The notes under the pieces: generated by a model | The model's input: only the letters and a program-made list of their open reading frames with translations | The model's database searches: none | What the model was told of the DNA's origin: nothing | DNA from: Candidatus Hadarchaeota archaeon | GTDB lineage: Archaea; Hadarchaeota; Hadarchaeia; Hadarchaeales; Hadarchaeaceae | Length of the DNA stretch: 56,512 bases | Direction: 5' to 3' | Assembly (NCBI GenBank): GCA_964514965.1 | Contig: CAZETV010000002.1 | Span: forward strand, 188,545-245,056 | Program-made: the position numbers and the translations under genes | Shown: in pieces, positions 2,025 through 18,049 of the stretch | Layout of the letters: every line of letters starts with the position of its first letter | Numbering within the stretch: the first letter of the stretch is position 1

Positions 2025-3320
2025 TTACTTGGGCCTGATATATCCCCACTTCTCTATGGCGGCCCTCAATTCTCCTCTTCCCTTGGCGTATTCTTCAAGC
2101 GGAACTTTCCTTAGCGTAGCATCGATGGCCTGACGCACAGCTGCTGCCCCCGCTCGTCCACCTAGCGGATGTCCCCAAACACCGCCCCCAACTTGGATGA
2201 TAATATCTGTTCCAAACATGCCGATGATCTCGGGTACCAAACCTGGGTGCAACCCGCCTGAGATGACGGGGAAAACAGGTCTGATCGCGCGCCACTCTTG
2301 AGCTAGAATTTGCCGTCCCCTTTTAACGTTACTATTCATGATTTCTCTTTGTAGCGCCAGAACCTCCTCCCGTGGCGCCTCAAGCTTCCCTATTGCGGTG
2401 CCGATGTGGAGCTGGTCAACGCCCACAAGGCGAGCTATTTTTGCAACGGCTAACATAGACATCCCATGCTCTGGCTTGCGCGTGAATGCGGCGTGGAACG
2501 CACGGTGAGCGTGGATCGCGAGCCCTAAATCTTCACAATCATCGCGCAGCGATTGAACTCCTGCCCACCCCGCCGTCAGGATATCTACCATCACATACTC
2601 CCCACCTTGCTCCTTTACGAATTTCGCGCGGCGGAGCATTTCTCGCGTCTCGGCGGTCACGTTAATCAAATAGCTCTTTCGTTCTCCAGTTTCGTGCTCG
2701 GCTCGGTCGCGCAGCTCAAGCGACTTAGTCACCCTGCGTTCGAATTGGTTGAATCGCTGCCCAGAGAGGTTCTCATCGTCCTTGAGCAGGTCAATGCCGC
2801 CTACCCAAGCTTCGTATCCCGCTCGAGCGTGCTCCTCGCTGCTCATCCCGACTTTGGGCTTTGGCACCGTTGCGGTCAGCGGCCCCTCTCTCCCCTTGAA
2901 TATCTTTCTGATGCCCTTGATACCAAACTGAGGACCCTTGAAAGATTTTATGAGCTCCGGAGGCCACCGCACGTCCTCGAGCCTGAGATTGCGCACGGCT
3001 TTCATCCCGAAGATGTTGCCCGCGATCGAGCTAAGCACTTGGGGCATGTTCCCCGCCTCGAAGAGGTCAAGCGGGTAGGCCACCTTCACCCACCGCCCTT
3101 TAATTTCGTAGGCCTTCGCCATGAGTCGTCGCTTTTCGGGCGTCATCGTCGTAAGGGTGGTCCAAGTGCCAATCGAGCTCTCCGAGGCCACGCGCCCCAC
3201 GGCTTCTCGCATGCTAATGCCGTTCGCAGGCTCAACTCTAAACAAAACGATCAAGTCCTCGCGGGCGGGCCTGTAGCTCGGGTCGACGAAATCTAAATAC
3301 CATTCGGTCTTCATGCTCAT
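2025..3320 (-). CDS. rbcL: Ribulose-1,5-bisphosphate carboxylase/oxygenase large subunit, archaeal form III.
   Basis: Motifs GIDLLKDDENL, LAIHAHRAFHAAFTR, GGGVWGHPLGGRAGAAAVRQA. 431 aa. No small-subunit gene nearby. Confidence 0.9.
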   Translation of the reverse strand: MSMKTEWYLDFVDPSYRPAREDLIVLFRVEPANGISMREAVGRVASESSIGTWTTLTTMTPEKRRLMAKAYEIKGRWVKVAYPLDLFEAGNMPQVLSSIAGNIFGMKAVRNLRLEDVRWPPELIKSFKGPQFGIKGIRKIFKGREGPLTATVPKPKVGMSSEEHARAGYEAWVGGIDLLKDDENLSGQRFNQFERRVTKSLELRDRAEHETGERKSYLINVTAETREMLRRAKFVKEQGGEYVMVDILTAGWAGVQSLRDDCEDLGLAIHAHRAFHAAFTRKPEHGMSMLAVAKIARLVGVDQLHIGTAIGKLEAPREEVLALQREIMNSNVKRGRQILAQEWRAIRPVFPVISGGLHPGLVPEIIGMFGTDIIIQVGGGVWGHPLGGRAGAAAVRQAIDATLRKVPLEEYAKGRGELRAAIEKWGYIRPK

Positions 3321-4188: not shown

Positions 4189-4273
4189 GGCACACTAAAA
4201 AGAGATTTCCTTCCAACAAATCTATCGAATTTCGACACGAAATTAATATAAAAGCTGCAATGTAGTCATTTTA

Positions 4274-5149
4274 GTGTCATCCATGGTGAGCGAGGTGTCT
4301 TCCAACATAGAAACCGTGCTGTCGAGCATCGAGTTCAAACACACTCTACACCTCTACAGCTCCGATGTGAACAAGTACTCGGTTCAGGCACCCTTCCTAG
4401 CGGCCGCAAAGAAGGGCGAAACCGTTGTATACGTCACCAACGAGAGCCCCGCAGCGATGATGAAGGAGTTTGAGGGACTCGGTATCAAACTTTCCGTCAT
4501 AAAGCCCGAAGAGTTAGGAAAATTACCAATCACCAATCGCGGTCTGAGAGTAGTCGTAGACGCTGGCTCGATCGACCCGAGCATGCTCCGAAGGCTGAGA
4601 AGTCGAACACGGGAAGCGATAGCTAAGTACATCGACCACTCCAAGCGGGAAAAATACTTGGCTGAGAGATGTAAAGACTGCCTCATCTTGTGCACTTACG
4701 ACATGGGCAAGCTCGGTCCCGATTTGGTCAAACAACTCGTCGCATCCCACGATAAGCTGGTGCTAACGACGAGCGATGCGACCATCCTAGCGGCGGAGTC
4801 GCTGGATCGGGCTGGGCTTGCGGCTGAATCGGTTCAGCGGTTTGTGAAGGATGAACTTGAGACCATAGTTCTGGCGCTCGTGCTCAGGGAGCCAATGTGC
4901 GGCACCGACATAATAAAAACAATCCACAGCAAGTTCAACGTACTTTTGAGCCCGGGCACGATATACCCTCTCTTGCACGACCTTGAGAAGAAGGGGCTAT
5001 TGAAATGCGAGTACGGCGTAAAGACTAAGACCTACAAGCCGATGGAAGGCGCCGAGGAAAAAATCCGCGCCATGCTTGAGGAGCACGTCAAAGCGAGCAG
5101 GTTCCTGAGCAAGTTTTTGCAGGTCACCAGCGCGAGCGAAAAGCGGTAA
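4274..5149 (+). CDS. Putative gvp regulator: degenerate KaiC/RecA-like (GvpD-like) domain fused to a C-terminal PadR-family winged HTH.
   Basis: N-terminal part GETVVYVTNESPAAMMKEFEGLGIKLSVIKPEE has a KaiC-like fold signature without an intact Walker A. C-terminal VLREPMCGTDIIKTIHSKFNVLLSPGTIYPLLHDLEKKGLLKCEYGVKTKTYKPMEGAEEKI is a PadR signature. Paralogue of 15819..16805. Confidence 0.6.
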   Translation: MSSMVSEVSSNIETVLSSIEFKHTLHLYSSDVNKYSVQAPFLAAAKKGETVVYVTNESPAAMMKEFEGLGIKLSVIKPEELGKLPITNRGLRVVVDAGSIDPSMLRRLRSRTREAIAKYIDHSKREKYLAERCKDCLILCTYDMGKLGPDLVKQLVASHDKLVLTTSDATILAAESLDRAGLAAESVQRFVKDELETIVLALVLREPMCGTDIIKTIHSKFNVLLSPGTIYPLLHDLEKKGLLKCEYGVKTKTYKPMEGAEEKIRAMLEEHVKASRFLSKFLQVTSASEKR

Positions 5150-5229
5150 CGGTTTTAGCGTTCAAATTTCGAAACACAAACTTATTAGGGATTTTTTCAG
5201 CGGACTTTATGTGGTGGGGGTGATTTCAG

Positions 5230-5436
5230 ATGCTCGGAAGGCGATCAATTATGGGGATTGTTTCCTCCGCGGATTACGATAAACTTCAAAATATGTGTGC
5301 TCGAGAGGGATGTCGCATCTCAGATATAGTCGGCAGAATCGTTTCCCAGTACTTGGCCAGAGTCCCCGCGGAAAAAGTTGTGAAAGTAAAGAAAATAAAA
5401 AGGATTAAAAAGGCCAAGAAACGGGCCCCCAAGTAA
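5230..5436 (+). CDS. Small ribbon-helix-helix (CopG-like) DNA-binding protein with a Lys-rich tail.
   Basis: RRSIMGIVSSADYDKLQNMCAREGCRISDIVGRIVSQYL is an RHH beta-alpha-alpha pattern. 68 aa. Lies between the PadR-fusion gene and the gvpF operon. Confidence 0.45.
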   Translation: MLGRRSIMGIVSSADYDKLQNMCAREGCRISDIVGRIVSQYLARVPAEKVVKVKKIKRIKKAKKRAPK

Positions 5437-5461
5437 AATCCGCTCAAAACGAGGTGAACCC

Positions 5462-5527
5462 ATGGGAAAATTGAAGGAGTGGTTTCGTAAGAAATCGAAG
5501 CGTAAGGCAAAGAAAAAGGGAAAATGA
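5462..5527 (+). CDS. Possible 21-aa highly basic micro-protein (MGKLKEWFRKKSKRKAKKKGK).
   Basis: Strong SD (gaggtga) 7 nt upstream of ATG. Not in the ORF track because it is under 60 aa. Confidence 0.25.
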   Translation: MGKLKEWFRKKSKRKAKKKGK

Positions 5528-5620: not shown

Positions 5621-6970
5621 ATGGGTTGTATGTTTTCGAAGCTCGACACAAAACGTTTAAATCCCGCATATATCGAAATTCGATACGAGATTAGATACAA
5701 GGTGAAGTGTGTGGAGGTAAAACCACTTAGTAATATCATAGCTATCGGAAAGACGACGCGGGGGGGCAGACCATTCCCTGTCAGAAGGCATCGGGGCCTG
5801 TACTTTTTCATCCCGGTTGAGCAGTTCGACTGGTTAAGGGAAGTAAATGATGCTTACAAGACCCTCTACCGAATGGAGGGGGGGGTAGAGCCGCTTCAGA
5901 AGATAAAGATAGTTGGGAGAGGAGGCGTTGAGGGATACAAGCCATTCTTGCTCAGGGGGCACTACGGACGGTATTTGTGCATCCTCGCCGAGCATCTTAG
6001 ACAGCTCAAGCAGATCAACCGCGCGTATGCGGAACTACTTGAAGCTAAAGGGCTGGAGAAAGAGCGCAAGAGGAGGTTAGAAGAGAAGGAACGAGCGAGC
6101 AAAATTGTAGAAAGCGTGAAAGCGGCGGTAGAGGACGCCCGAAAGATAGGAGCACCCGAACATGGGGCCGAACTCATGCGGCCCGTCGACGAATCCCTTG
6201 CCGAAATCGAGGCTGCGTTCATCGCCGAGGAATACAACAAGACCATTGAGCTGGCATCAAAAGTGGATGAACTGGTCCGAGAAGCTAGGGCAAAAGCGCT
6301 CAAGAAAATCGAGGAAACGAAAAAGATCGAAGCGGTGAAAAGACCTCCAGAAGAGGGGAGGTACGTTTACTGCATCATCCCTTGGGAGGGGAGCCACAGC
6401 AGGCTTAGCTTTGGAGACTTGGGTGTAGAGGGCAACGGCGAGGTGTACGCCATACCCTTTGGAGACATCGCAGCGGTCGTGAGCAACGCCCCCTTCAAGG
6501 AATACGTGCTCACCGAGGACAACATACGCACCCATAACCAAGTCATAACGCGCGTGATGCAGGAGTACCCTGTCGTGCCAATGGCTTTCGGCATGGCGTT
6601 CAAAAATGAGGGGGTGCTCAAAGGGTTGCTCGGGAGGATGCGCGATGATTTGAAAAATGCCCTAAATGAAGTCAAGAGCAAGGTCGAACTCGGCGTCAAG
6701 GTGATCTTGCCGGAGGGGACCGAGTTCGACGAGAACGCATTTGCATCTGAGATCAAGGCGCTTCACGAGCTGGCGACCCAATGCAAGCTCGGCAAGCGGT
6801 TCAGCAAGCGTTTGATCTTGAACGCGTTTTATCTAGTAGCGAAAGAAAAAGTGGAAGATTTCCTAGGCGCGGCTAAAGCGCTGGAGGAGAAGTTCAAACA
6901 GCTGAGTATACAGTGCACTGGTCCATGGCCCCCGTTCAACTTCGCAACAATAAAAGTTGGAGGTAGGTGA
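5621..6970 (+). CDS. gvpF: GvpF/GvpL-family gas vesicle protein with a ~240-aa N-terminal extension (two copies of a ~45-aa domain plus a coiled coil).
   Basis: C-terminal 205 aa (GRYVYCIIPWEG...GDIAAVVSNAPFKEY...VVPMAFGMAFKNEG...TGPWPPFNF) is canonical GvpF/L. The N-term contains IIAIGKTTRGGRPFPVRRHRGLYFFIPVEQFDWLREVNDAYKTL and KIKIVGRGGVEGYKPFLLRGHYGRYLCILAEHLRQLKQINRAYAEL, the same duplicated domain as in ORF 9969..10274. Confidence 0.8.
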   Translation: MGCMFSKLDTKRLNPAYIEIRYEIRYKVKCVEVKPLSNIIAIGKTTRGGRPFPVRRHRGLYFFIPVEQFDWLREVNDAYKTLYRMEGGVEPLQKIKIVGRGGVEGYKPFLLRGHYGRYLCILAEHLRQLKQINRAYAELLEAKGLEKERKRRLEEKERASKIVESVKAAVEDARKIGAPEHGAELMRPVDESLAEIEAAFIAEEYNKTIELASKVDELVREARAKALKKIEETKKIEAVKRPPEEGRYVYCIIPWEGSHSRLSFGDLGVEGNGEVYAIPFGDIAAVVSNAPFKEYVLTEDNIRTHNQVITRVMQEYPVVPMAFGMAFKNEGVLKGLLGRMRDDLKNALNEVKSKVELGVKVILPEGTEFDENAFASEIKALHELATQCKLGKRFSKRLILNAFYLVAKEKVEDFLGAAKALEEKFKQLSIQCTGPWPPFNFATIKVGGR

Positions 6971-7265
6971 GGTGCCCTTCCTAGTCGATGACATAGTTCT
7001 CCGAATGCTCGGGATTTCGATCCCGCCCTTCGACATGATCTGGTTGCTGGAGACCATACGGGACTTCGCCGTTCGGGAAGTCTATGATCCTGAAAAGATA
7101 AGCGACTCGATAAAGGAAAACCGGATGCTCTACGAACTCGGGGAGATCACGAAGGAGGAGTATGAGCGGGTCAATACAGAGCTCCTCGAGGCGCTCGAGA
7201 TAGCAAAGCGTGCTAGGGAGACGAAGATCGAGCACCGCATCGATATTTTGGGAATTGGTGGGTAG
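6957..7265 (+). CDS. gvpG: GvpG-like gas vesicle protein.
   Basis: FLVDDIVLRMLG...YDPEKISDSIKENRMLYELGEITKEEYERVNTELLEALE matches the GvpG pattern as remembered. Position between gvpF and gvpH. Overlaps the gvpF stop. Confidence 0.6.
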   Translation: MEVGEVPFLVDDIVLRMLGISIPPFDMIWLLETIRDFAVREVYDPEKISDSIKENRMLYELGEITKEEYERVNTELLEALEIAKRARETKIEHRIDILGIGG

Positions 7266-7266
7266 G

Positions 7267-7791
7267 ATGAAAAGGCACCCTATGCAACTATGCAGGCTCC
7301 TCTTTGGCAACATATTTCACGACCTAGAAAAGCTGGCGAGGACAGTAGATGCGCTCGCCAAAGAGGGAGAGGTCCGGAAGGGGTACAAAGAGGGCCCCTT
7401 CATCGTCGAGTACCGGCGGACCGTTCGCTACATCCGCCCTGAGTCCACCGCTCCAGCCCCCGAAGCACCGCGAATCGAAATCAAGCCGAAACCAATCGAG
7501 GCCGAGGCCAAGCCTAGGGAATCGCTAGTGGACGTTTTCGACATGGGAGATCATATCTTGGTCATGGTCGGGCTCCCCGGTGTGAAGGAGGAAGATATCG
7601 AGTTCGAGACCGTGGGCAGCGCGCTCAAGATCAAGATTCACACACCCGGTGGCGATGTCGAGGGCGATATCTCGATTGCGGGAGTTGAACAGGTTAAAGA
7701 AATCATGGGTGCCTCTTTCAAGAACGGCACCCTCGAAATCAAACTGAAAAAAATAAGGGAGGTGAAGAGATGGGAACCAGCACAGCGATAG
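7267..7791 (+). CDS. gvpH: GvpH-like Hsp20/alpha-crystallin-domain protein.
   Basis: ESLVDVFDMGDHILVMVGLPGVKEEDIEFETVGSALKIKIH...GTLEIKLKK is an Hsp20 ACD. ATG at 7267 directly follows the gvpG stop. The track ORF starts at 7210 on an upstream alternative start. Confidence 0.75.
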   Translation: MKRHPMQLCRLLFGNIFHDLEKLARTVDALAKEGEVRKGYKEGPFIVEYRRTVRYIRPESTAPAPEAPRIEIKPKPIEAEAKPRESLVDVFDMGDHILVMVGLPGVKEEDIEFETVGSALKIKIHTPGGDVEGDISIAGVEQVKEIMGASFKNGTLEIKLKKIREVKRWEPAQR

Positions 7792-8174
7792 GGGTCGGGG
7801 GGCTGAGGAGGCGCAGGCGAAAGGCCATGATATCTAAAACAGTTGCGCGGAGCAAGCTGAGCAGGGACAGATCGAGAGTCAAGCTGCTGCACGCGAGGGA
7901 GCGGTACAAGATGAAGGTGTGGAAGCACGAGCGCGGGATGGCAGCCAGAAAGGCGGAGCAACCAAGCAAGCTTGGTCCGCTTGCGGTATCGTTCATGCCT
8001 TCGAAAGAGTCCGCCAAGCGATCCAGGCTGGTGCAGCCCCGCTGGTCGGCCGTGCCCAGCAAGCCCAAGTATTCCGATGTGAAGCCGAAGGAGAGGCTCT
8101 ACGGGCTGAGGTTCGAGGCGCGCGAGAAGCGACTCGCAAAGCAGGAGTCCGAGGAGAAAAAGCCCAAGGAATAG
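7770..8174 (+). CDS. gvpI: Basic Arg/Lys-rich protein in the gvpI position.
   Basis: 134 aa, very basic (RRRRRK, KAEQPSK, KPKYSDVKPKE...), as GvpI is described. Synteny between gvpH and gvpJ. Confidence 0.45.
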   Translation: MGTSTAIGVGGLRRRRRKAMISKTVARSKLSRDRSRVKLLHARERYKMKVWKHERGMAARKAEQPSKLGPLAVSFMPSKESAKRSRLVQPRWSAVPSKPKYSDVKPKERLYGLRFEAREKRLAKQESEEKKPKE

Positions 8175-8184
8175 GTAGGTGTGG

Positions 8185-8544
8185 ATGATGGTAGCTATCG
8201 CCCCGACAAGGGAGGGCCCGAGCGACTTAGCTCAAACAATCGAGAAGATTCTCGACAAGGGACTCGTGCTAGACGCCGACATCGCGGTTTCGGTCGCCGG
8301 TACCGAGTTGCTGGGCATAAAGATTCGCGCCGCACTCGCCTCTTTCGAAACCGCCGCGAAATATGGTCTCGAGTTTCCGAGCGGCGTCAACCTCAATGCC
8401 CCTGCATGGAAAGAGATAAACGTGAAAAAGGCGAAGTGCCCGGGCTGTGGAAACGAGTGTCCGGAGGAGGAGCTGCTCAAGCGGGGTTGTCCAATCTGTG
8501 GCTGGATGAGCCCGCTGAAGCCAAGACAGGCCCCGATCCCCTAG
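8185..8544 (+). CDS. gvpJ: GvpA-family (GvpJ-position) protein with a C-terminal CxxC...CxxC zinc ribbon.
   Basis: LAQTIEKILDKGLVLDADIAVSVAGTELLGIKIRAALASFETA is the GvpA/J/M core. C-terminal CPGCGNECPEEELLKRGCPICGW. Confidence 0.75.
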   Translation: MMVAIAPTREGPSDLAQTIEKILDKGLVLDADIAVSVAGTELLGIKIRAALASFETAAKYGLEFPSGVNLNAPAWKEINVKKAKCPGCGNECPEEELLKRGCPICGWMSPLKPRQAPIP

Positions 8545-8553
8545 GTGGTAAAC

Positions 8554-8868
8554 ATGGCAATCGAGATCGATGAGTACAACCTCAAACAAGGGTTGCTGGG
8601 GCTGGTAGTCGCTCTCGCCGAAGTCATCCAAGAGGTGCTCGAGCACCAAGCGCTGCGGAGGATGGAGTCGGGTGGGCTGACCGATGCTGAGGTGGAGCGG
8701 CTCGGCAACGCTCTCATCGAGCTCGACGAGGCACTTGAACGCATCAAGCGGGAGAACGGAATCGAGGAGTGCGTGAGGTCCGTGCGAGATGGGCTCGACC
8801 AAGTAGCGGACGAGGCCATCCGTAAGCTAGCCGACCCGCAGGAGTGGGCAAGGGAGGCCACATCGTGA
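8554..8868 (+). CDS. gvpK: GvpK gas vesicle protein.
   Basis: LLGLVVALAEVIQEVLEHQALRRMESGGLTDAEVERLGNALIELDEAL matches the GvpK signature. GGTGG SD 5 nt upstream of ATG 8554. Confidence 0.8.
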   Translation: MAIEIDEYNLKQGLLGLVVALAEVIQEVLEHQALRRMESGGLTDAEVERLGNALIELDEALERIKRENGIEECVRSVRDGLDQVADEAIRKLADPQEWAREATS

Positions 8869-9653
8869 ACGGAACCCAAAAAGCGACCGAGGGGAGGTAC
8901 CTATACTGTATAGCCAGCTGCGGCGATGGGTTGTCACTGGGAGAGATAGGGATAGACAAGGGCCAAGTTTACACGATTACGCATAACGACATCGCTGCAG
9001 TAGTACACGTTTGCCCGCCCAAGCCCTATGAGTCCAAGGACGAGGAGCGCGTGAAGCGCTGGGTCTTCACCCACAACTACATCATCGACCAAGCCACCAA
9101 GCGATTCGGCACGGTGCTGCCTTTCTCTTTCGATTCTATCGTCAAGGGGGACGACGACGCGGTGGAGGGATGGCTGAGCGAGAATTACTCCCGATTTAAA
9201 GGTGAGCTCGAGAGGCTCAGAGGGAAGTCGGAACACACGGTACAGATCTTCTGTGACGCCTCCTTGTTAGCGCGGAGGATTGAAAAAGACAACCAGGAGA
9301 TTGGGTGGCTCGCGGAAGAGATCAAAGTAGCTCCCAAGGGAAAAGCCCACCTACTCGAACGGAAGCTCCAAAAGATGATTAGGGAGGCCGTGGCAGCTCA
9401 GGTTCGCGATTGGTCCAAAAAGTTCCATGTGCAGATAGAAGAACATGTCGAGGAGGCGAGGGAGGAGCGAAGCAGGTTCGTGCCCGAGCGGTTCAAGGAT
9501 AAGAAACTCGTGCTAGGCCTATCGTGCTTGGTCAGCGAGGGGAAAGTCGAAAAACTCGGAGAGGTGCTCCGCCAAATAAACGAGCAAGAAGGGTTCTCGG
9601 TGCGGTTCACGGGGCCTTGGGCGCCATTCAGCTTTGTGAGGTTGACCAAATGA
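8865..9653 (+). CDS. gvpL: GvpL (second GvpF/L-family protein).
   Basis: GRYLYCIASCGDG...HNDIAAVVHVCPPKPY...TGPWAPFSFV. GTG start at 8865 overlaps the gvpK TGA (GTGA), with GGGAGG SD upstream. The track ORF uses an earlier GTG at 8844. Confidence 0.8.
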   Translation: MNGTQKATEGRYLYCIASCGDGLSLGEIGIDKGQVYTITHNDIAAVVHVCPPKPYESKDEERVKRWVFTHNYIIDQATKRFGTVLPFSFDSIVKGDDDAVEGWLSENYSRFKGELERLRGKSEHTVQIFCDASLLARRIEKDNQEIGWLAEEIKVAPKGKAHLLERKLQKMIREAVAAQVRDWSKKFHVQIEEHVEEAREERSRFVPERFKDKKLVLGLSCLVSEGKVEKLGEVLRQINEQEGFSVRFTGPWAPFSFVRLTK

Positions 9654-9883
9654 GGCCGACGCGGGAGTGCGGGCTCGTCGAGTTGCTCGATAAGATTTTG
9701 GACAAGGGCGTGGTGCTCAACGCAGATGTTATCATCTCGGTCGCTGGGGTTCCACTGGTGGGGGTGAGCCTCCGCGCTGCGCTTGCCGGAATCGAAACGA
9801 TGTTGGACTACGGCATAATGGAGGCTTGGGACCAGAGCATTAGGGAGCATTACTCAGAGGAGCTGGCGAAGAGAAAAGCGTAG
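9650..9883 (+). CDS. gvpM: GvpA-family (GvpM-position) minor gas vesicle protein.
   Basis: LVELLDKILDKGVVLNADVIISVAGVPLVGVSLRAALAGIETMLDYG. ATG overlaps the gvpL stop (ATGA). The track ORF 9524 is an upstream extension. Confidence 0.8.
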   Translation: MRPTRECGLVELLDKILDKGVVLNADVIISVAGVPLVGVSLRAALAGIETMLDYGIMEAWDQSIREHYSEELAKRKA

Positions 9884-9968: not shown

Positions 9969-10274
9969 TTAAAGCTCTCGATACGCTTCGTTGACCGCCC
10001 GAAGCCGCTCGAAGTCCTCCGCAAGGATGCAGAGGCAGCGTTCCCCCCTCACAAGAAATAGCTTGAAACCAAGTACGCCACCTCTGCCCACGATTTTTGG
10101 CTTGCTGAGTGGCTTCACCTTGGCCCTCCCCCTAGACAGCGCCTTGTAAGCTTCATTAATTTTCAGTAGTCTCTCGATGTCCCTTGCCGAGATAAATAAA
10201 TAGTCGCCTTTTTGCCCGGTGATTCTGAATGGCTCCTCGGTCCCTCGCTTACCTATAACCTTTATCCTCTTCAA
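9969..10274 (-). CDS. Standalone protein made of two copies of the ~45-aa domain also found at the N-terminus of GvpF (5621).
   Basis: IKVIGKRGTEEPFRITGQKGDYLFISARDIERLLKINEAYKAL plus KPKIVGRGGVLGFKLFLVRGERCLCILAEDFERLRAVNEAYREL. Convergent with gvpM. Confidence 0.55.
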   Translation of the reverse strand: MKRIKVIGKRGTEEPFRITGQKGDYLFISARDIERLLKINEAYKALSRGRAKVKPLSKPKIVGRGGVLGFKLFLVRGERCLCILAEDFERLRAVNEAYREL

Positions 10275-10385
10275 CGCTCTTACCGCCAGAGGTTCACCTT
10301 CATCCAGTCCCTCTTACCCATAGGGTTTTTCCATTTCCTTTCGCCCTTCGACATATCGCATGAACTCCCGCATGATGTCCTCGTA

Positions 10386-12551
10386 CTACCTTACCATCTC
10401 CGGAGTCATCGTCGGTCGAACCTTCTTTATCGCCCCATCGAAGTGCTTGCACTCGATCCGCTTGTCCTTGAGCGCCTTCCGCATCGCTTCCTTAGTCATC
10501 CCGGGCTTAATCGCCTCCCGGAGCGAGAGCATCACTGCCTCCCTGCATATCGCCGCTATGTCCGCGCCCACGTAGCCTTCGGTCCCCTTGGCGAGCGCGC
10601 TCAAGGAAACGTCCTTTGCAAGAGGTTTCTCCTTGAGGTGGACCTTGAAGATTTCCTCGCGCTCCTTCGGGTCGGGAGGTAGAACGTAAATCAGCCTGTC
10701 GATTCGGCCCGGCCTCAGCAGCGCCCGGTCGATCATGTCGGGCCGGTTGCTAGCGCACAGCACGAGCACATCCTTCAGCTCCTCCAACCCATCGAGTTCG
10801 GTCAACATCTGACTAACGACGCGCTCGGAGACATGCGAGTCGAAACTCACCGCGCGCGTCGGGCACATCGCATCGATTTCATCGAAAAAGACGATGCAGG
10901 GGCTTGCTTGCCTCGCCTTCCTGAACATCTCCCTCACGCCCCGCTCGCTCTCGCCAACCCACTTCGACAGCAGCTCTGGGCCTTTAATCGAGATGAAGTT
11001 CGCCTCGCTCTCGGTCGCGACGGCCTTCGCCAGCATTGTCTTGCCAGTGCCGGGGGGTCCGAACAATAAAATCCCCTTGGGGGGCTTGGTCTTGAAGCGC
11101 TCGAAAGCTTCGGGGTACTTGAGTGGCCACTCCACCGCCTCGATCAGCTCCTGTTTTGCCTGCTCCAAGCCGCCTATGTCATCCCAGTGCACGTTGGGGG
11201 CTTCGATGAACACCTCCCGCATCGCGCTGGGAGTCACAGTCTTGAACGCATTTGAAAAATCATTCATCGTGACTTCAAGTGCCTCAATGATCTCAGCTGG
11301 AATCTCCTTCTCGATCTCGATTTTCGGCAGGATCTTGCGCAGGGCGCTCATCGCCGCCTCCTTGCATAGCCCAGCGAGGTCAGCGCCTACAAAGCCGTGA
11401 GTTATGTCGGCGAGGTAGTTGAGGTTGACATCTTCTGTGAGTGGCATCCCGCGCGTGTGGATCTGCAGGATCTCGTAGCGCCCGTTTCGGTCTGGGATGC
11501 CTATCTCGATTTCGCGGTCGAATCTTCCTCCTCGGCGCAACGCCTCATCGAGAAGGTTGGGTTGGTTAGTTGCACCAATTACAACAACTTTTCCGCGCGT
11601 CTTAAGACCATCCATCAGCGAGAGAAGTTGCGCCACCACCCGCCGCTCAACCATCCGCTCCCCAGTCATCTCCGAGCGTTTTGGGGCAATCGCGTCTATC
11701 TCATCGATTAGGACGATCGCTGGAGGGTTCGCCTCCGCCTGCTCGAATATCTCCCTGAGGCGGGCCTCTGACTCCCCATAGTACTTACCGATCACTTCTG
11801 GACCCGAGACGAAAACGAAGTTCGCATCGGTCTCGTTTGCTACCGCCTTCGCTATTAGCGTTTTGCCTGTGCCTGGGGGGCCATGGAGCAGTACCCCTTT
11901 AGGGGGCTCAATCCCCAGCCTCTGAAAGAGTTCGGGATGCTTTAGCGGTAGCTCGATCATCTCACGGATGAGTCCTACCTCGCGCTTCAGCCCGCCGATG
12001 TCCTCGTAGGTGACGTAGGTCCGCATAGCCTCGATTGGCTTCTCTGCGAGCGTGACCTCGGTCTCCGGGACAACGATAACAACGCCCGTGGGCTGGGTGG
12101 AGGTGACGATGAAAGTAAGTGGTCTACCTAGAATATCGACTCGAATTTGCTGGTCCTTGATGATCGGCTGCCCCTCGAGCACCTTGCGGATGTACTCGTC
12201 GCCCTCCACTATCCTTATCGGCTCCGTGGGGGCAACACTTATTCTCCTCGCCTTCTCGGCGGCGGCCTTCCTGATCTCAACCCGCTCACCGATTCCAATG
12301 CTTGCGTTGCTCCGAATGTTACCATCGATCCGAATTATCCCACTGCCCGAATCCTCGGGATAGCACGGCCAAACAATCGCGTAAGCAGACCCCTTCCCCT
12401 TAATCTCGACGATGTCCCCGCTGACCATACCTAACTTTTTCATCACCTCTGAGTCTACCCGCGCTATCCCCCGACCTGCGTCGCGGTGCTTCGCCTCAGC
12501 AACTAGCAGGATTTGGGGCACGTTACCACGATTTTGTTCTCGCTTCCTCAA
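10386..12551 (-). CDS. cdc48: CDC48/VCP-type AAA+ ATPase (N-domain plus two AAA modules).
   Basis: Two Walker A sites (GPPGTGKT twice), SRH motifs, N-terminal double-psi barrel region. 721 aa. Confidence 0.9.
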
Positions 12552-12585
12552 CCTTTAAACGTGAAAAAAATGTGCTCGATACGGG

Positions 12586-12873
12586 TCATGTCATAAATTC
12601 TAATCCCTCTCGATCAGACCTGCGCCTTACCCGCACCTGATTGAACCCCTGTACTCCGCCATCCTCGCTGAGCGAGAGTTCGTACCTGCCGATCAAATCC
12701 TGAGCGTCGGGTATCGCTTTTCGCTCGAGCACTTCAACGAGCAGTTTCCACCCTCCCCCCTTCTCCTTCGAGACACCGATCACCGACTCAAACGGTTTCT
12801 TTATTGTCTCCTTGACAAATGCCGGAGCCATGTCAACTATCTCGACCGCTTTCCTCTCTTTTTTCTCCGCCAT
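12586..12873 (-). CDS. gvpO: GvpO-like gas vesicle protein.
   Basis: MAEKKERKAVEIV...GGGWKLLVEVLERKAIPDAQDLIGRYELSLSEDGGVQGFNQVRVRRRSD. GGAGGT SD before this ATG. The track ORF 12586..13020 is an upstream extension. Confidence 0.6.
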   Translation of the reverse strand: MAEKKERKAVEIVDMAPAFVKETIKKPFESVIGVSKEKGGGWKLLVEVLERKAIPDAQDLIGRYELSLSEDGGVQGFNQVRVRRRSDREGLEFMT

Positions 12874-12883
12874 GTTTAACCTC

Positions 12884-13249
12884 CTACGGCACGTAGATGT
12901 AGCCACCGCGCTTGTAGGGTACCACCTTGACGCTTTTGCCCTTCCAGTTCGCAACCCCCTCACGGACGTTATAGCGCTCCACATCTTTGGCCAGCTTGTA
13001 GTATTTGAGGAACTTCGCAAATCGCTGCTGCTTGGCCCTGCCGCCCGCGCGGAGCGCCGATGTGCTGAAAGTGCCGTCCGATTTTAGTCGTAAGTAAAAC
13101 GTCGTGCTCACGGTTCGCCCGTCTGGAGTTTTAGCCGCCACTATTACAGCATCGGTGTCTGCGATTGTCAGCCCTGGTGGCTTCTTCCGCCATAGCTTGC
13201 TTATCTTGCAGACCCTTACATCCTCTATCGTCGCACTCAACCTTTCCAT
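12884..13249 (-). CDS. Hypothetical gvp-associated protein inserted between gvpN and gvpO.
   Basis: 121 aa, no family recognised. Tightly packed in the gvpA-C-C-N-?-O operon. Confidence 0.4.
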   Translation of the reverse strand: MERLSATIEDVRVCKISKLWRKKPPGLTIADTDAVIVAAKTPDGRTVSTTFYLRLKSDGTFSTSALRAGGRAKQQRFAKFLKYYKLAKDVERYNVREGVANWKGKSVKVVPYKRGGYIYVP

Positions 13250-13259
13250 AACCTCACCC

Positions 13260-14288
13260 CTAACTTGGTATCACCTCTTTCACGAGGCGTTGCTTATTGA
13301 CAAGATCGACGGGCCCCTTAACCTTCGTCGCTAAGATATCGAGAACCAGTTCTTCGAGCCGCTTCTCGCCGTCGCCTAGCACCATGAGTCCTTGAGCGAC
13401 CATTATACAGGCCCGCGTCCCAGGCTTCTCGGCATCGGGCAGTTTTTCCCTTATCTTTCTGATAATCTCCACTATCCTCCGCGCATCTGCGTCGGATACT
13501 CCCGAATGCGCCGTCGTGATCTCCACCTCGGTCTCTGGGTCGTAGAAGTCCATGTAGATTCCAACGGTGCGATCAAGCAGCGCGTCCTGCGGGCGGTGCA
13601 CCCCGGCGTAGTCGACCGAGTTGCTCGTGAATATCGCCATGAATTCCGGATGGGCCTTGATGTATCGCTCCTCGCCGAATCGCGTGGGGAGTTCCAGCAC
13701 GCCCTCTTGGAACACCGAAAGCAGGACGTTGTTAGCTTCAGGCTTCGCTCGGGAGAAATCGTTATAGACGAAGATGTAACCATTCTTGCACGCGATCGTC
13801 AGCGGGTTGTCCACCCAACCAGCTTTCAGGATATTTTTCGCCTTGAGGACGGTGTGAACGTAACGGTCGCGGATGCTCTCACTCTCCACCTGTGAGTAAC
13901 CACCAACGAGATCAGTCGTAGTCATTGACTCGTCTCCGTTCAGCCAGACCGTCGGCTTTCCCAGCTCTTCGGCCACTTTCATCGCGAGCGTGGTCTTCCC
14001 GCAGCCGGTCGGGCCAATGATGTGAACAGGGTAGCCGGCGTTGAGCCAGAGCTTCACCTTCTCCTTGAGTTTTTTGACTTGCTCGGTCTCGACGAAATGC
14101 TCGACCTTCGGCATCAGGTATCTGGTCTCCACCGTTTCAGCAGCGAGTTCAGGTCTCACAGTAATCGCTCGCTTAACGAATTCCGCGCGCTTCGCACGTT
14201 CCTCGCGCCACCGCTCTTTTGCCTCCTCCAAGGTCTCGGTGATTCGCTCTCCCCTGACTTTCTTAGGATGGGCCCGTCTCCATCTCAC
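13260..14288 (-). CDS. gvpN: GvpN AAA+ (MoxR/CbbQ-like) gas vesicle ATPase.
   Basis: VHIIGPTGCGKTTLAMKVAEELGKPTVWLNGDESMTTTDLVGGY... Single AAA module, 342 aa. Confidence 0.85.
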   Translation of the reverse strand: MRWRRAHPKKVRGERITETLEEAKERWREERAKRAEFVKRAITVRPELAAETVETRYLMPKVEHFVETEQVKKLKEKVKLWLNAGYPVHIIGPTGCGKTTLAMKVAEELGKPTVWLNGDESMTTTDLVGGYSQVESESIRDRYVHTVLKAKNILKAGWVDNPLTIACKNGYIFVYNDFSRAKPEANNVLLSVFQEGVLELPTRFGEERYIKAHPEFMAIFTSNSVDYAGVHRPQDALLDRTVGIYMDFYDPETEVEITTAHSGVSDADARRIVEIIRKIREKLPDAEKPGTRACIMVAQGLMVLGDGEKRLEELVLDILATKVKGPVDLVNKQRLVKEVIPS

Positions 14289-14397
14289 ATAATTGCCTCC
14301 GCTAACCCCTCCATGATAGGCTTATTTAGTTTTTCGTTTCGAAATTCGATATATCTAAGAAGTAAAATTTGAAAAAAGTAAGGGAATCAACCGTTAG

Positions 14398-14595
14398 CTA
14401 CTCGTACCAAAAGTCATTTACGTACTTGCCCACATCTTCTTTGTGGTATCTTTCAATCTCGTTTTGAAATTTTTTGGCTTCTCCGAGTAACTCCTTAGCG
14501 CCCCGTTCGATTTTTTTCACCGCAGCATCAATCGCTGCGCGCTTCGCCATCACGCCAGTCTTTTCCTTTTCAGCCACCCTGCGCCCCCCTAACAA
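14398..14595 (-). CDS. Small alpha-helical GvpC-like or gvp-associated protein (paralogue of 14637..15065).
   Basis: C-terminus AKKFQNEIERYHKEDVGKYVNDFWYE parallels ...KRLGNEFKRYRKEDFSNAIQNFWYG of the neighbour. Position between gvpA and gvpN is where gvpC sits. Confidence 0.4.
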   Translation of the reverse strand: MLGGRRVAEKEKTGVMAKRAAIDAAVKKIERGAKELLGEAKKFQNEIERYHKEDVGKYVNDFWYE

Positions 14596-14636
14596 TCATA
14601 ATTTGATAATAAATAAAAATAAAAGAAAGGGGTAAT

Positions 14637-15065
14637 CTAACCGTACCAGAAGTTTTGGATAGCGTTACTGAAGTCTTCTTTCCTGTACCGCTTGAACTCG
14701 TTGCCTAACCGCTTGCATTCGTTGCTTAACTTCTTTGCATTGCTCAGGATTTGTTCGGTCCCCTTGCCGATCTTCGCTACTGCCTCCTCGTTCTCTTTGA
14801 CTTGCGCTTGGATCGCCGACTGAAGTTCACCTGCCCCAGTCTCTATCTTTTTGACAGCTTCCTCCACTTTATTGGTTGTCTCTTTAACTGCTGCTGTCAT
14901 CTGCTTGACTCCCTCGGTCATTCGTCTCTCTCCTTCTTTGTAAATGTCTTTGCCTGCTTTTTGAACATCTCTACTTGTCTTCTCAATCGCGGCACGCTTC
15001 GCTAAAACCCCCTTCTTCCCAATCTTCGGTTTTTCCACCTTAGGTGTATACTCCTCTTCTACCAT
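14637..15065 (-). CDS. gvpC: GvpC-like helical-repeat scaffold candidate.
   Basis: 142 aa. Repetitive Lys/Glu-rich helical segments (AKRAAIEKTSRDVQKAGKDIYKEGERRMTEGVKQMTAAVKETTNKVEEAVKKIETGAGELQ...). Directly downstream of gvpA. Confidence 0.4.
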   Translation of the reverse strand: MVEEEYTPKVEKPKIGKKGVLAKRAAIEKTSRDVQKAGKDIYKEGERRMTEGVKQMTAAVKETTNKVEEAVKKIETGAGELQSAIQAQVKENEEAVAKIGKGTEQILSNAKKLSNECKRLGNEFKRYRKEDFSNAIQNFWYG

Positions 15066-15130
15066 TTTCTACCCCCTAAATAATTGAACGGGCCCTCGCG
15101 GGGCCCGCCACGATCTCAGGCCGAGGCTCT

Positions 15131-15352
15131 CTAAGGCGCAGCTGGTGCACCGATCGCAGCTGCCTCGATTTTCGTCATCTCTTCCGCGTAGTGGACGAAG
15201 GTGTCGACTGACGCCACTACCACACGAGCCTCAACAGTAAGTATCTCAATTCCAACTAGCGAAACTCGTGCCCAGACATCGACGACAATCCCCTTGTCGA
15301 GGATTCGATCGAGAACCTCTGCCAAGTTACTAATTGCTGGTCTAGCTGCCAT
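15131..15352 (-). CDS. gvpA: GvpA, major gas vesicle structural protein.
   Basis: [52 protein letters not shown] is a near-canonical GvpA core. 73 aa. GGAGGT SD. Confidence 0.95.
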
Positions 15353-15389: not shown

Positions 15390-15818
15390 ATGTTTTTAAA
15401 CGAATTTTTTCTCGAAACTCACATCAGGAGTTGTTTTGAAATTCGAAAGTTGCATGATTCAGAAAGTTTATTTACAATCAATTCCAACTCTAAACGATGG
15501 GGTGAAGATTTGTCTGCTCGTAGAAATTTTTACAGAAGGATTGAGTTGCGCAGGGCATGGCTCGAGCGAAAGAAGCGAGCGACCGCCGCGATACAGGATC
15601 TCCGCTGGAAGCGACGGGCAGCCAAGCTGGGGAAAAAGCCTGCCCCTGAGGAAAAAGAAGCCCCAACTGAGGAAAAGGCCCCCGTGGAGGAAACCAGAGA
15701 GGAAGTTCCCGAAGAGAAAGCTCCCCAAGCGCCAAAAGATGAAGCGCCTGAGAAAAAGCCCACAGAAGAGGCGCCGCCCGAGAAGACTGGAGTCCCGCCC
15801 GCGCTCTTTCCCGAGTAA
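15390..15818 (+). CDS. Doubtful ORF: basic N-terminus plus Pro/Glu/Lys-rich low-complexity tail.
   Basis: KKPAPEEKEAPTEEKAPVEETREEVPEEKAPQAPKDEAPEKKPTEEAPPEK. Overlaps the gvpA promoter region. Three overlapping ORFs on both strands suggest compositional bias. Confidence 0.2.
   Translation: MFLNEFFLETHIRSCFEIRKLHDSESLFTINSNSKRWGEDLSARRNFYRRIELRRAWLERKKRATAAIQDLRWKRRAAKLGKKPAPEEKEAPTEEKAPVEETREEVPEEKAPQAPKDEAPEKKPTEEAPPEKTGVPPALFPE
15391..15400 (-). promoter_or_regulatory. Candidate TATA box (TTTAAAAA) of the gvpA promoter, about 40 nt upstream of the gvpA ATG.
   Basis: Minus-strand reads cgTTTAAAAAcatcggggaagttcatatgaaaaaatagGGAGGTtaggaaATG. Confidence 0.35.
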
Positions 15819-16805
15819 TCACTTCCGAATAGAATCGAGCAGATATTTTTGAGCCGAGATGAAATCGTTTATTTTATCCTCCGCCACCCGCTTGCCCTCC
15901 TCAGTCAGCGTATAGACCTTCGAGCGCAGGTTCCCAGATTTCATGTCCAGAAGCTCGCGCCTTTTCAAGTCGTACAAAAGTGGGTAAACGGTGCCCTGGC
16001 TGAGGAAGGTGTGGTACTTCCGATAAATCGTCCGGATCAGATCGTAGCCGCACATCGGGTTTCGCAATAGCAGGGAAAGGGTGATGACCTCGAGGTGCTT
16101 CTTGACGAGCCTTTCCAAGGCTTTTCTGGGAATGGTCTCGGTTGAGAGCAGGCTTGGCAACTCGGATGAGCGGTAGTTGAATATCGACATTCGGTGCTCG
16201 TTGCGCGTCGAAACCACGACGTTTTCATGGAACTCCAACAACCTTCCGACCGCGTCATCCCTCAGGAAGTTGACATTGAATGCCGTTATCATCCGAAGCG
16301 GAAGGGATGATTTCACATTTCTCTGTTTGTATCTTCTCCTACCCCAGGCCAAGGGGATCTTCTCGCCCCTCTTCTCTAGGATTCCCCTCACGCAATCGAT
16401 GATAGTGTCGAAGGTGCTACGGGTCGGCAAAGAGCCGAAGTCAATACCCACCCTTATACCTTTGCCCTCTTGGGATCTGACGCGCCTGCATAATTCCCAA
16501 ACCTTGGAATTGAGTTCTTTGATTCCCCGCAAAATCCCTCCCTTCTCCATCGGGAGGAGATACAGCTTACCGGCTTCAACATACTTCCCGAGAACGTTCT
16601 CCGGATGTAGCTGGTCCTCCGTATTGTCGTACGCGAAAATACAGAGCTCGTCGTTCTCCAAACCACTCTCGATGAAAGAGAGAAGTGCCCCATAGACCTC
16701 GGTGCCTTCCCCATACAGAAAAAGTGAACAATCGTTTTTTTTCTGCTTGAAAAGAAAGACTTTATCGCTGATTGGCAGGGACACTTGTTGACCAACAGCC
16801 GTCAT
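15819..16805 (-). CDS. Second KaiC/RecA-like (degenerate P-loop) plus PadR winged-HTH fusion regulator, divergent partner of 4274..5149.
   Basis: N-term LFLYGEGTEVYGALLSFIESGLENDELCIFAYDNTEDQL (KaiC-like). C-term LLRNPMCGYDLIRTIYRKYHTFLSQGTVYPLLYDLKRRELLDMKSGNLRSKVYTLTEEGKRV (PadR). Confidence 0.6.
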   Translation of the reverse strand: MTAVGQQVSLPISDKVFLFKQKKNDCSLFLYGEGTEVYGALLSFIESGLENDELCIFAYDNTEDQLHPENVLGKYVEAGKLYLLPMEKGGILRGIKELNSKVWELCRRVRSQEGKGIRVGIDFGSLPTRSTFDTIIDCVRGILEKRGEKIPLAWGRRRYKQRNVKSSLPLRMITAFNVNFLRDDAVGRLLEFHENVVVSTRNEHRMSIFNYRSSELPSLLSTETIPRKALERLVKKHLEVITLSLLLRNPMCGYDLIRTIYRKYHTFLSQGTVYPLLYDLKRRELLDMKSGNLRSKVYTLTEEGKRVAEDKINDFISAQKYLLDSIRK

Positions 16806-16810
16806 CGCCG

Positions 16811-16822
16811 CCCCCCCCCCCC
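16811..16822. repeat. C12 / G12 homopolymer tract beginning 6 nt upstream of the ATG of the PadR-fusion gene.
   Basis: gtcatcgccg CCCCCCCCCCCC gacg. The ATG is the revcomp of 16803-16805. Confidence 0.9.
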
Positions 16823-17098
16823 GACGAATGAAGTTTTGCTAGACCCCTGTTGGTGTGGCGGGAGCGCGGCATAGAACTCCGATTTTTACCCGCTATAGGT
16901 GAACCTCCTCCCGTCTCTAACATGTCCAGCCTCCGAAATCTGGGTCAAGAGTTCCACCGGATGAAGTGAAAATGAACCCTAGAATAAAAGAGAGTCTAGC
17001 ATTTTTATCCGTTTTCATTTTTGAAATCCGAAACGAAAGTCGTTTTGTAAATCGAAAAAATACAAAAGGGCGCGCTGTGATTTTATAGCGGGATTAGA

Positions 17099-17407
17099 TT
17101 GGACGTGAAAACCTTGAACACACTGAAGGAACTTGAAAGGTCCGGCACGGTGCCGATACTCTTAGCCATAAGCCGACTGGGGAGAGGGAAATTTACCGAC
17201 ATCCATTACGAGAGCATCCGGATGGGCTTTAGGGTCGGGAGCGGTGTCGTCAGCAGGCGACTTGACCAGTTATGCGCTCTGGGATGGGTTCAAAAGATAA
17301 AGAATGAAGAAAGGAGTAAAGTTTTCACCCTAACCGAGAAGTGGTTAAGGCTAGCTAAAGCTATCAAGGAATTCATCCGAAGTTTAGAACGAAACAAAGT
17401 TGAGTAA
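17099..17407 (+). CDS. Small winged-HTH transcriptional regulator.
   Basis: 102 aa. Helix-turn-helix plus wing (VSRRLDQLCALGWVQKIKNEERSKVFTLTEKW). Confidence 0.45.
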   Translation: MDVKTLNTLKELERSGTVPILLAISRLGRGKFTDIHYESIRMGFRVGSGVVSRRLDQLCALGWVQKIKNEERSKVFTLTEKWLRLAKAIKEFIRSLERNKVE

Positions 17408-17450
17408 AATGAAACCGATGTTTTCCTGAGCGTTTTACCGCTGTCCTCAT

Positions 17451-18035: not shown

Positions 18036-18049
18036 CTGACCATCAAATT

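Follow-up and report, generated by a model that had tools for sequence, protein, structure and literature searches.

The stretch of DNA analysed here, 56,512 nucleotides (nt) from a Candidatus Hadarchaeota archaeon (contig CAZETV010000002.1, positions 188,545 to 245,056) and referred to below as the window, contains a gas-vesicle (gvp) gene cluster flanked by two regulatory genes, regA (ORF-A in the list of open reading frames, ORFs; 4274..5149, plus strand) and regB (ORF-B; 15819..16805, minus strand). Both encoded proteins consist of an N-terminal KaiC-fold domain with a dead P-loop and a C-terminal PadR winged helix. According to our comparisons, the winged helix is a homolog of the haloarchaeal regulator GvpE, while the N-terminal domain belongs to the MEDS/inactivated-KaiC domains, among which it forms a small, very divergent branch. 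We regard it as probable that RegA and RegB are GvpE-type gas-vesicle regulators that bind palindromic sites, most likely as activators, and that carry the inactivated KaiC domain as a built-in sensor or switch. Our confidence is high for the identities of the two proteins taken together with their gvp-specific regulatory role, and it is clearly lower, only just leaning towards acceptance, for the assignment of the operator taken together with the sign of the regulation.

To our knowledge, no regulators of archaeal gas-vesicle genes other than GvpD and GvpE have been characterised. GvpE, PadR and MEDS/inactivated KaiC are already known as separate parts; the MEDS-GvpE fusion, its constant place in gvp clusters outside the haloarchaea and the palindrome associated with it were not present in the titles and abstracts that we found, a collection in which subscription journals were largely uncovered. 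Our results indicate that a GvpE-type domain is a regular, syntenic part of the gas-vesicle clusters of many anaerobic, non-halophilic and mostly uncultured archaeal lineages, in which it is fused to an inactivated KaiC domain (MEDS) and accompanied by a conserved candidate operator. They provide a concrete pair of regulator and candidate operator for these clusters, they lead us to reinterpret GvpE, long called leucine-zipper-like, as a PadR-type winged-helix protein, and they suggest an evolutionary link between the control of GvpE in cis, by a fused inactivated KaiC domain, and in trans, by GvpD. Gas-vesicle clusters are mined as acoustic reporter genes, and a compact native regulator with an 11-bp candidate site could serve the controlled expression of such reporters.

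Architecture and relatedness of RegA and RegB

Both ORFs exist as the initial annotation of this DNA had described them, and the architecture that it proposed for the two proteins is borne out by PadR matches above the gathering score, by weak MEDS matches and by a RecA-like fold. The listed regA frame opens with a GTG and encodes 291 amino acids (aa); because its orthologs begin with MVSEV, the start is probably the ATG at 4283, which gives a protein of 288 aa. The RecA/KaiC-fold domain of RegA extends over residues ~20-178 (4331..4807, plus strand), and its GvpE-like PadR winged helix, which ends in a long C-terminal helix, over residues ~186-289 (4829..5140, plus strand). RegB, with 328 aa, has the same two domains.

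A BLASTP comparison of RegA with RegB gives an E-value of 2e-24 over the C-terminal two thirds, and the profiles of the two families align over nearly their full length (hhalign probability 99.9%, E 2e-33). As judged from these alignments, regA and regB are paralogous. As had been supposed, there are two copies of the fusion, and each of the two gvp operons has one of them upstream. The accompanying statement that regB is divergent from gvpA was mistaken, since both genes are on the minus strand, and regB lies upstream of gvpA (15131..15352) and co-directional with it, at a distance of 466 nt.

The C-terminal domain and its relationship to GvpE

The PadR family (PF03551) is matched by RegA with 34.6 bits and by RegB with 41.6 bits, so that both proteins exceed the Pfam gathering score of 27. 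Proteins of this family are also the only solved sequence relatives: a search of PDB sequences with a profile of full-length RegA returned PadR proteins only (E 1e-6 to 1e-3), with no match for the N-terminal domain. In the AlphaFold model of RegA, the long C-terminal helix covers residues 261-289, with a confidence below 60 in the last ~20 residues. RegA and RegB resemble PadR, LmrR, AphA and the small PadR-s2 type in having a winged helix of ~100 aa that is followed by one C-terminal helix. Typical PadR proteins lack an N-terminal sensor domain and mostly repress detoxification or efflux genes, whereas the RegA/RegB subfamily is tied to gvp genes.

Halobacterium GvpE itself matches the Pfam PadR family (30 bits versus a cut-off of 27). 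It aligns with RegA in BLASTP with an E-value of 7e-13 and 34% identity over 77 residues, and hhalign comparisons with GvpE give a probability of 97.6% (E 3e-12) for the RegA family and of 96% (E 2.5e-9) for the RegB family. A hidden Markov model (HMM) of the RegA C-terminus scores GvpE at 48.8 bits versus 12.3 bits for a generic PadR protein of the same Halobacterium plasmid, and the same model gives 61-81 bits to short proteins that consist of PadR alone and are encoded at the margins of gvp clusters in Bathyarchaeia. Used as a tblastn query against the window, GvpE finds exactly two places, the C-termini of regA (4859..5083, E 1e-10) and of regB (E 3e-7); in the tblastn map of plasmid pNRC100, RegA and RegB both match inside gvpE. 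From these sequence comparisons we conclude that the PadR domain of RegA and RegB is a GvpE homolog.

The haloarchaeal gene order in pNRC100 is gvpD-E-F-G-H-I-J-K-L-M, and regA in the window stands directly before gvpF-G-H-I-J-K-L-M, that is, in the gvpE slot. The fusions had been described as standing in place of both gvpD and gvpE. The window contains no gvpD homolog; given the homology and the slot, gvpE is not replaced and is present, in two copies, as the C-terminal half of the fusion.

RegA and RegB share with GvpE of Halobacterium salinarum and Haloferax mediterranei the homologous winged-helix region, whose signature is CG..., LSPGT(I/V)YP.L..L..(G)(L/V)L and then the C-terminal helix. 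The location of the gene immediately 5' of gvpF-M is also shared, as is a short DNA element that is specific to gvp promoters and adjoins the B recognition element (BRE) and TATA box. GvpE differs in its length of 191 aa, in its acidic N-terminal ~78 residues and in the lack of a KaiC-fold domain. Furthermore, GvpD, a protein without a counterpart in the window, controls it in trans, and the upstream activating sequence (UAS) of GvpE, which has been defined experimentally, consists of two 8-nt YGAAAYGA portions with a 4-nt spacing and not of the TCGAAWTTCGA palindrome described below. A review of the field presents GvpE as leucine-zipper-like and the influence of GvpD and GvpE as confined to a few haloarchaeal species (PMC4390858). 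Neither a relationship between GvpE and PadR nor GvpE homologs outside the haloarchaea were mentioned in the titles and abstracts retrieved, which again left subscription journals largely uncovered.

The N-terminal domain and its relationship to KaiC and GvpD

With the Pfam MEDS model (PF14417), RegA scores 29.4 bits against a cut-off of 29.8, and RegB scores 18.5 bits (E 0.0018). A score of 35.1 bits is obtained for P0212, another member of the family, and precomputed MEDS matches exist for many orthologs. The structural model predicts a RecA-like alpha/beta core for the N-terminal domain of RegA, with Twinkle, RadA and UvsX also among the fold relatives. In the AlphaFold model, strand beta1, an eight-residue loop and helix alpha1 occupy the place where the Walker A motif GxxxxGK[ST] would sit. 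This motif is found in neither protein, in agreement with the family alignments: the RegA segment LYSSDVNKYS (core YSSDVNKY) has no glycine, with a Lys/Arg that is nearly invariant in the family, and the RegB segment LYGEGTEVYG (core YGEGTEVY) has no lysine. The degenerate Walker A noted in the initial annotation is therefore confirmed. A Walker-B-like aspartate is invariant in both families, namely D96 in RVVVDAGS of RegA and D122 in RVGIDFGS of RegB.

The family defined by this domain is tiny. We ran the N-domain profile exhaustively against 1.84 billion representative proteins with HMMER (E ≤ 0.001, clusters at 50% identity) and obtained 43 proteins or clusters, the full-length members of which are mostly 240-310 aa long, corresponding to the domain plus PadR. 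Among the weakest matches are two canonical MEDS proteins, namely P0211 (E 1.3e-4), which has a MEDS domain (E 4e-50) together with PAS, GAF and DUF835, and P0210 (E 7e-5), a MEDS-PAS protein. MEDS and DUF835 were classified by Galperin and co-workers as inactivated KaiC-like domains (PMC5847659). The domain of RegA and RegB resembles the MEDS domains of DcmR, RsbA and archaeal MEDS histidine kinases in its Pfam match, in the profile link to MEDS-PAS proteins and in its RecA/KaiC fold with a degenerate P-loop. It differs from them in forming a very divergent and very small branch, with RegA just below and RegB well below the Pfam gathering score, and in having a PadR/GvpE-like partner domain. 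One-component regulators that combine MEDS with a helix-turn-helix (HTH) domain are known, DcmR being an example, and they have been described as small-molecule sensors (PMC11507031). By comparison with known MEDS systems, there was no indication of hydrocarbon-related genes near RegA and RegB.

The N-terminal domain had been called GvpD-like, a name that is justified only at the level of the KaiC/RecA superfamily. Halobacterium GvpD gives 357 bits with PF07088, 476 bits with PF20440 and an E-value of 9e-15 with Pfam KaiC. Neither RegA nor RegB matches PF07088, PF20440 or KaiC (PF06745) in Pfam at E ≤ 0.1, and hhalign comparison of the RegA and RegB family profiles with Halobacterium GvpD, represented by a single sequence, gives probabilities of 0.2% and 0.4%. 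The best tblastn match of GvpD in the window is the P-loop of the CDC48 gene (E 0.37), and no gvpD homolog was found there, so that the partnership of GvpE-type activators with GvpD does not occur in this cluster. A gvpD was not seen in the related loci examined either. A direct relationship of the N-terminal domain to GvpD was rejected on the evidence of Pfam, of hhalign with the single GvpD sequence and of tblastn, although a very remote link may exist.

GvpD and the N-terminal domain of RegA are alike in that both belong to the KaiC/RecA superfamily and are encoded at the start of the gvpF operon together with a GvpE-type winged helix, as its neighbour or as its fusion partner. This suggests that the two KaiC-fold modules are functionally paired with GvpE in the same way. 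GvpD differs in being a separate protein, in its intact and functionally required P-loop and in its C-terminal basic region of ~285 aa (PF20440), which is absent here.

Association of regA and regB with gas-vesicle clusters

At E ≤ 0.001, 340 database relatives of RegA were found. Those listed, 120 in number, are 43-91% identical to RegA, are annotated only as PadR or HTH regulators and come from metagenome-assembled genomes of several archaeal phyla. The gene was found immediately before gvpF in all five of the neighbourhoods examined individually. A scan of one genome per species then contributed 42 further full-length regA loci. Among the loci with more than 700 nt of downstream sequence, a gvpF homolog starts within 900 nt downstream of regA, on the same strand, in 42 of 42. 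Because the synteny recurs in all of these loci, the regA-gvpF arrangement is far beyond chance. Over the database relatives and the genome scan together, the identity of RegA orthologs is 35-91%.

The related loci are identified below by L-numbers, and their lineages are those of the record titles. At least eight named archaeal lineages carry regA: Thermoplasmatales, Methanocellales, Methanobacteriota, many Bathyarchaeia, Hadarchaeota, Aenigmatarchaeota, Iainarchaeum, Nanoarchaeota, many Methanoperedens and Methanosarcina sp. UBA7. Two regA contigs are binned as bacteria, with a gene content that is archaeal-like. The regB gene is rarer, with 55 database relatives; in L092, L004, L009 and L020, full-length copies precede gvpA on the same strand. 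RegA is a near-obligate gvp-cluster gene in the genomes sampled, and the RegB lineage is less strictly tied to these clusters. The gvp linkage of the fusion proposed at the outset, as opposed to its being common genome-wide, is upheld by the 42 regA loci and by the mere 43 clusters found among 1.84 billion proteins.

Some of the related clusters have peculiarities of their own. Two Bathyarchaeia gvp clusters (L006:14978-17907 and L007:15271-18209) contain a third gene of the GvpL/F family, whose product includes a fused DnaJ domain and behind which an Hsp70 gene lies within the cluster, and both have short GvpE-like PadR genes (108-115 aa) at their edges. In Hadarchaeum sp. BE2011_56_16 (L017:10001-10536), a regA ortholog (80%) ends after the N-terminal domain and abuts an inverted gvpA fragment. 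This reflects either a rearrangement of the cluster or a chimera in the assembly.

A conserved palindrome at gas-vesicle promoters

The palindrome TCGAAWTTCGA occurs in three exact copies in the window (4225, regA; 5673, gvpF; 14339, gvpN) and in three copies with one mismatch (5162, small ORF; 15436, gvpA; 39041, outside the cluster). This total of six, with up to one mismatch in the window, compares with 1.95 expected from shuffles, and 1 of 100 shuffles reached it.

In the regA promoter, TCGAATTTCGA (4225..4235) lies 7 nt upstream of the TATA-like TTAATATA and is a candidate autoregulatory site; an identical site, or one with a single mismatch, is present at the same position in L001, L004, L011, L012, L094 and L096. 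The copy before the small ORF, TCAAATTTCGA (5162..5172), has one mismatch, and its counterpart in the close relative L094 is perfectly palindromic. Ahead of gvpF there are two elements. The imperfect palindrome TCGAAGCTCGA (5636..5646), followed by CAC and the TATA-like TTTAAAT (5656), may act as a distal promoter element and is kept in the regA-gvpF spacer of L001 (GCGAATCTCGACAC); the perfect palindrome TCGAAATTCGA (5673..5683) lies 7 nt upstream of the TATA-like TTAGATAC, ahead of the probable gvpF start, the GTG at 5711.

In the gvpA operon, a perfect palindrome (14339..14349) is located ~55 nt upstream of gvpN and followed, in gene direction, by AACGAAAAACTAAATAAG, with equivalents in L004, L020, L092 and the Methanoperedens loci. 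The gvpA gene is preceded by TTTCGAATTTCAAAA (15434..15448, minus strand), which is one mismatch from the palindrome and ~45 nt upstream of the TATA box TTTAAAAA; palindrome-like sites are found 88-145 nt upstream of gvpA in L023-L026, L032, L036 and L047. Upstream of regB there are two variant copies of the motif, TTTCGGATTTCAAAA and TTTCGATTTACAAAA (17019..17057, minus strand), in a region conserved in L096. The variant pattern TTTCGRATTTCAAAA occurs once before gvpA and twice before regB, its statistics being circular because it was derived from these very sites, and it could be a site preferred by RegB. The resemblance of TTCGAAACGA to the haloarchaeal YGAAAYGA, and likewise that of CGAAACGA, which follows several of the palindromes, is only a lead.

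For a comparison across loci, we collected 141 upstream regions of regA, gvpA, gvpN and gvpJ, amounting to 31.5 kb from phylogenetically related loci. They contain 25 matches with up to one mismatch versus a mean of 0.34 and a maximum of 3 for control palindromes, the controls being 59 composition-matched palindromes obtained by permuting the letters of the half-site. The rate of the motif in the gvp upstream regions is 5-29 times its overall rate in the same loci. It is present in loci titled Thermoplasmatales, Methanocellales, Thaumarchaeota, Bathyarchaeia, Aenigmatarchaeota and Methanoperedens, as well as in the closest relatives of the window.

Not only the motif but also its placement is conserved. 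After the palindrome come NAC(G/A)AAA and, 7-10 nt downstream, a TATA-like octamer, and this distance to a TATA-like element is seen in no fewer than eight promoters, which belong to several lineages. Examples are the regA promoters of the window (TCGAATTTCGA-cacgaaa-TTAATATA) and of L011 (TCGAAATTCGA-cacgaaa-CATATATA), the gvpN promoter of L092 (TCGAATTTCGA-aacgaaaag-CTATAAAT) and the gvpJ promoter of L001 (TCGAAATTCGA-tacgaagttg-GATATAAG). It has been shown experimentally that the UAS of GvpE must abut the BRE (PMC2241852). By analogy, the palindrome would occupy the position of an upstream activating sequence abutting the BRE, and its placement appears compatible with GvpE-type activation.

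Proposed mechanism and alternative explanations

In the mechanism that we propose, RegA and RegB would form dimers through the C-terminal dimerisation helix and bind TCGAAWTTCGA, with RegB possibly binding the TTTCGRATTTCAAAA variant. The bound sites would lie directly upstream of the BRE/TATA of regA, the small ORF, gvpF and gvpN, and further upstream at gvpA. From there the regulators would control the recruitment of the TATA-binding protein and transcription factor B, most likely as activators, in the manner of GvpE acting from its BRE-adjacent UAS. The inactivated KaiC domain would set the activity or the oligomeric state of the regulator upon binding of a ligand or partner, and would act in cis as the KaiC-like ATPase GvpD acts in trans on GvpE in haloarchaea.

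Several observations weigh against this reading, and a number of them favour its main rival, in which RegA and RegB are classical PadR-type repressors that sit on palindromes at or near core promoters and are released by a ligand of the MEDS domain. Most characterised PadR proteins are indeed repressors, mostly of the ligand-released kind. The palindrome before gvpN of Methanoperedens is only ~29 nt from the estimated start codon, a position that fits repression better, and the gvpF site at 5673, just downstream of the TTTAAAT element (5656), would fall between the TATA box and the transcription start if that element is the TATA box, which also fits repression. The description of MEDS-HTH regulators such as DcmR as small-molecule sensors (PMC11507031) agrees with a release by ligand. 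GvpE, however, the closest characterised homolog, is an activator with a UAS abutting the BRE, and the recurrent position of the palindrome 7-10 nt upstream of TATA-like elements, with the gvpA sites further upstream, is of the activator type. We therefore judge repression to be unlikely, though serious enough to be kept in view. The assignment of the operator also has points against it: the palindrome could be bound by the product of the small ORF, by a 102-aa winged-helix protein (17099..17407) or by the short PadR proteins of the relatives, and the motif counts across loci are not phylogenetically independent. The motifs of the two systems also differ, and the haloarchaeal half-site YGAAAYGA, considered as a shared operator, was rejected for its lack of enrichment in the window (11 occurrences versus 11.1 expected).

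The specificity of the pair for gas vesicles has to be weighed as well, since two sets of loci suggest that regA and regB could be a general convergent regulator pair with other targets, between which the gvp cassette merely lies or was inserted. In L096 (JGI contig Ga0314843_0000018, 300,701 bp; 10001-11976), regA (81%) and regB (70%) are adjacent and tail to tail, separated by 119 nt, and no gvp gene lies within 10 kb of the pair. In five Hadarchaeum loci (L053 and L055-L058; for example L056:9977-14167), a RegB-like MEDS-PadR gene (~40% identity) is convergent with a gene for a 120-aa PadR protein resembling the RegA C-terminus, and the pair adjoins two DUF835 (inactivated-KaiC) genes, with no gvp gene detected in the flanks of 10 kb on either side. 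The latter looks like a gvp-independent version of the regulator pair, and both exceptions count against strict specificity, as the pair may have targets outside gvp. In L096, however, the palindrome of the regA promoter and the region upstream of regB have been kept, and because a motif remnant persists downstream of regA, the locus is most simply read as a deletion of the whole ~10.7-kb gvp cassette between the two genes. The regA-gvpF order in 42 of 42 loci, which include lineages without regB, also speaks against a general pair, as do the recurrence of the regA promoter palindrome before gvpN, gvpJ and gvpA and the tiny size of an N-domain family that is almost entirely of RegA-type architecture; we regard this explanation as improbable. 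Less probable still is that the N-terminal domain is a working GvpD-like nucleoside triphosphatase and that, dependent on nucleotides, it turns over or remodels the GvpE-like domain fused to it. Its appeal lies in GvpD, a KaiC-like P-loop protein (Pfam KaiC E 9e-15) whose P-loop is needed to lower GvpE levels (PMC4390858), and in the near-invariant Lys/Arg that RegA has at the position of the Walker A lysine along with its invariant Asp96. It is hard to reconcile with P-loops devoid of glycine in RegA and of lysine in RegB, with the negative PF07088, KaiC and hhalign comparisons given above, and with the grouping of the domain with MEDS, classed as inactivated KaiC (PMC5847659).

A broader and quite speculative scenario, to which we give rather little credence, can also be formulated. 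The combination of a KaiC-fold module with a GvpE-type winged helix would be ancestral and would serve archaeal gas-vesicle clusters in general as their control device, and the haloarchaeal gvpD-gvpE pair and the fused MEDS-GvpE protein of methanogens, Bathyarchaeia, Thermoplasmatota, Hadarchaeota and DPANN-type archaea would be two states of it, related by fission or fusion or by domain replacement. Were this true, a dead KaiC domain would gate the activator in cis with the same type of signal that GvpD sends in trans through the nucleotide-dependent removal of GvpE.

Other features of the gas-vesicle region

The gvpF-G-H-I-J-K-L-M operon (5711..9883, plus strand) has the gene order of haloarchaeal gvpFGHIJKLM. 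Its genes match the Pfam families GvpL_GvpF, GvpG, an Hsp20-like protein (H), Gas_vesicle, GvpK and GvpL_GvpF, with a further Gas_vesicle match at 9524..9883 (the M-like gene), and Halobacterium GvpI and GvpM have tblastn matches in the operon. As listed, the gvpF frame starts with an ATG at 5621 and would span two palindromes and their TATA-like elements. Comparison with L001, where the regA-gvpF spacer is 80 nt long, suggests that the real start is probably the GTG at 5711, which has GGTGA before it. GvpF carries, ahead of the GvpF domain, an N-terminal extension of ~240 aa with an internal repeat and a coiled coil.

Convergent with this operon is the gvpA operon (10386..15352, minus strand), which consists of gvpA, a gene for a 142-aa coiled-coil protein, a 65-aa ORF, gvpN, a 121-aa ORF, gvpO and a gene for a CDC48-like AAA ATPase, with Pfam matches to Gas_vesicle, AAA_5, GvpO and CDC48_N/AAA. 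The last gene (10386-12551, minus strand) encodes a full double-AAA ATPase of the CDC48/VAT type, and a homolog lies beside the gvp cluster in many related loci (L006, L007, L013, L016, L024, L092 and others). This ATPase may unfold proteins during gas-vesicle assembly or in the turnover of a regulator.

Between regA and gvpF there is a small basic ORF (5230..5436, plus strand) of 68 aa, probably 61 aa from the ATG at 5251. The ORF described in the initial annotation is real, with 92% amino-acid identity in L094 and L095, the closest relatives, and no tblastn match in the other loci searched (L001-L090). The ribbon-helix-helix (RHH) assignment given to its product fared less well, as the product has no Pfam match and the only hints are insignificant, namely RHH_4 at E 0.1 for an ortholog and ParG at E 0.39; an RHH protein is a possible reading of this sequence. 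A highly basic mini-ORF of 21 codons (5461-5526, plus strand; MGKLKEWFRKKSKRKAKKKGK) is located between the small ORF and gvpF and is kept with substitutions in L094 (MGRLKAWFRKKSKRKAKKKGK).

A 142-aa ORF (15390-15818, plus strand) is antisense to the spacer between regB and gvpA. It has a Lys/Glu/Pro-rich C-terminal half of low complexity and no family match, and the identical Logan contig (L091) has it annotated as a gene. This frame is perhaps spurious; alternatively, it may fill the otherwise long upstream region of gvpA. A run of 12 G (16811-16822, on the minus strand) ends 5 nt before the regB ATG, where the L096 ortholog has only 5 G. It could be a slippage-prone tract that affects regB translation, or an assembly-prone homopolymer.

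The 102-aa winged-helix protein (17099-17407, plus strand; weak HTH_27 match) is encoded divergently from regB, and beyond its gene (17451-19197, minus strand) there are genes for a 194-aa protein without assigned function and for two Hsp20/GvpH-like proteins. Because the same gene set (17099-19197) precedes the regB orthologs of L092 and L093, the gvp region reaches past regB. At the other end, just upstream of the gvp region, there is a gene for the RuBisCO large subunit (2025-3320, minus strand; 431 aa, with both Pfam domains), which adjoins a gene for a 316-aa protein with a weak match to the C-terminal domain of HPr kinase.

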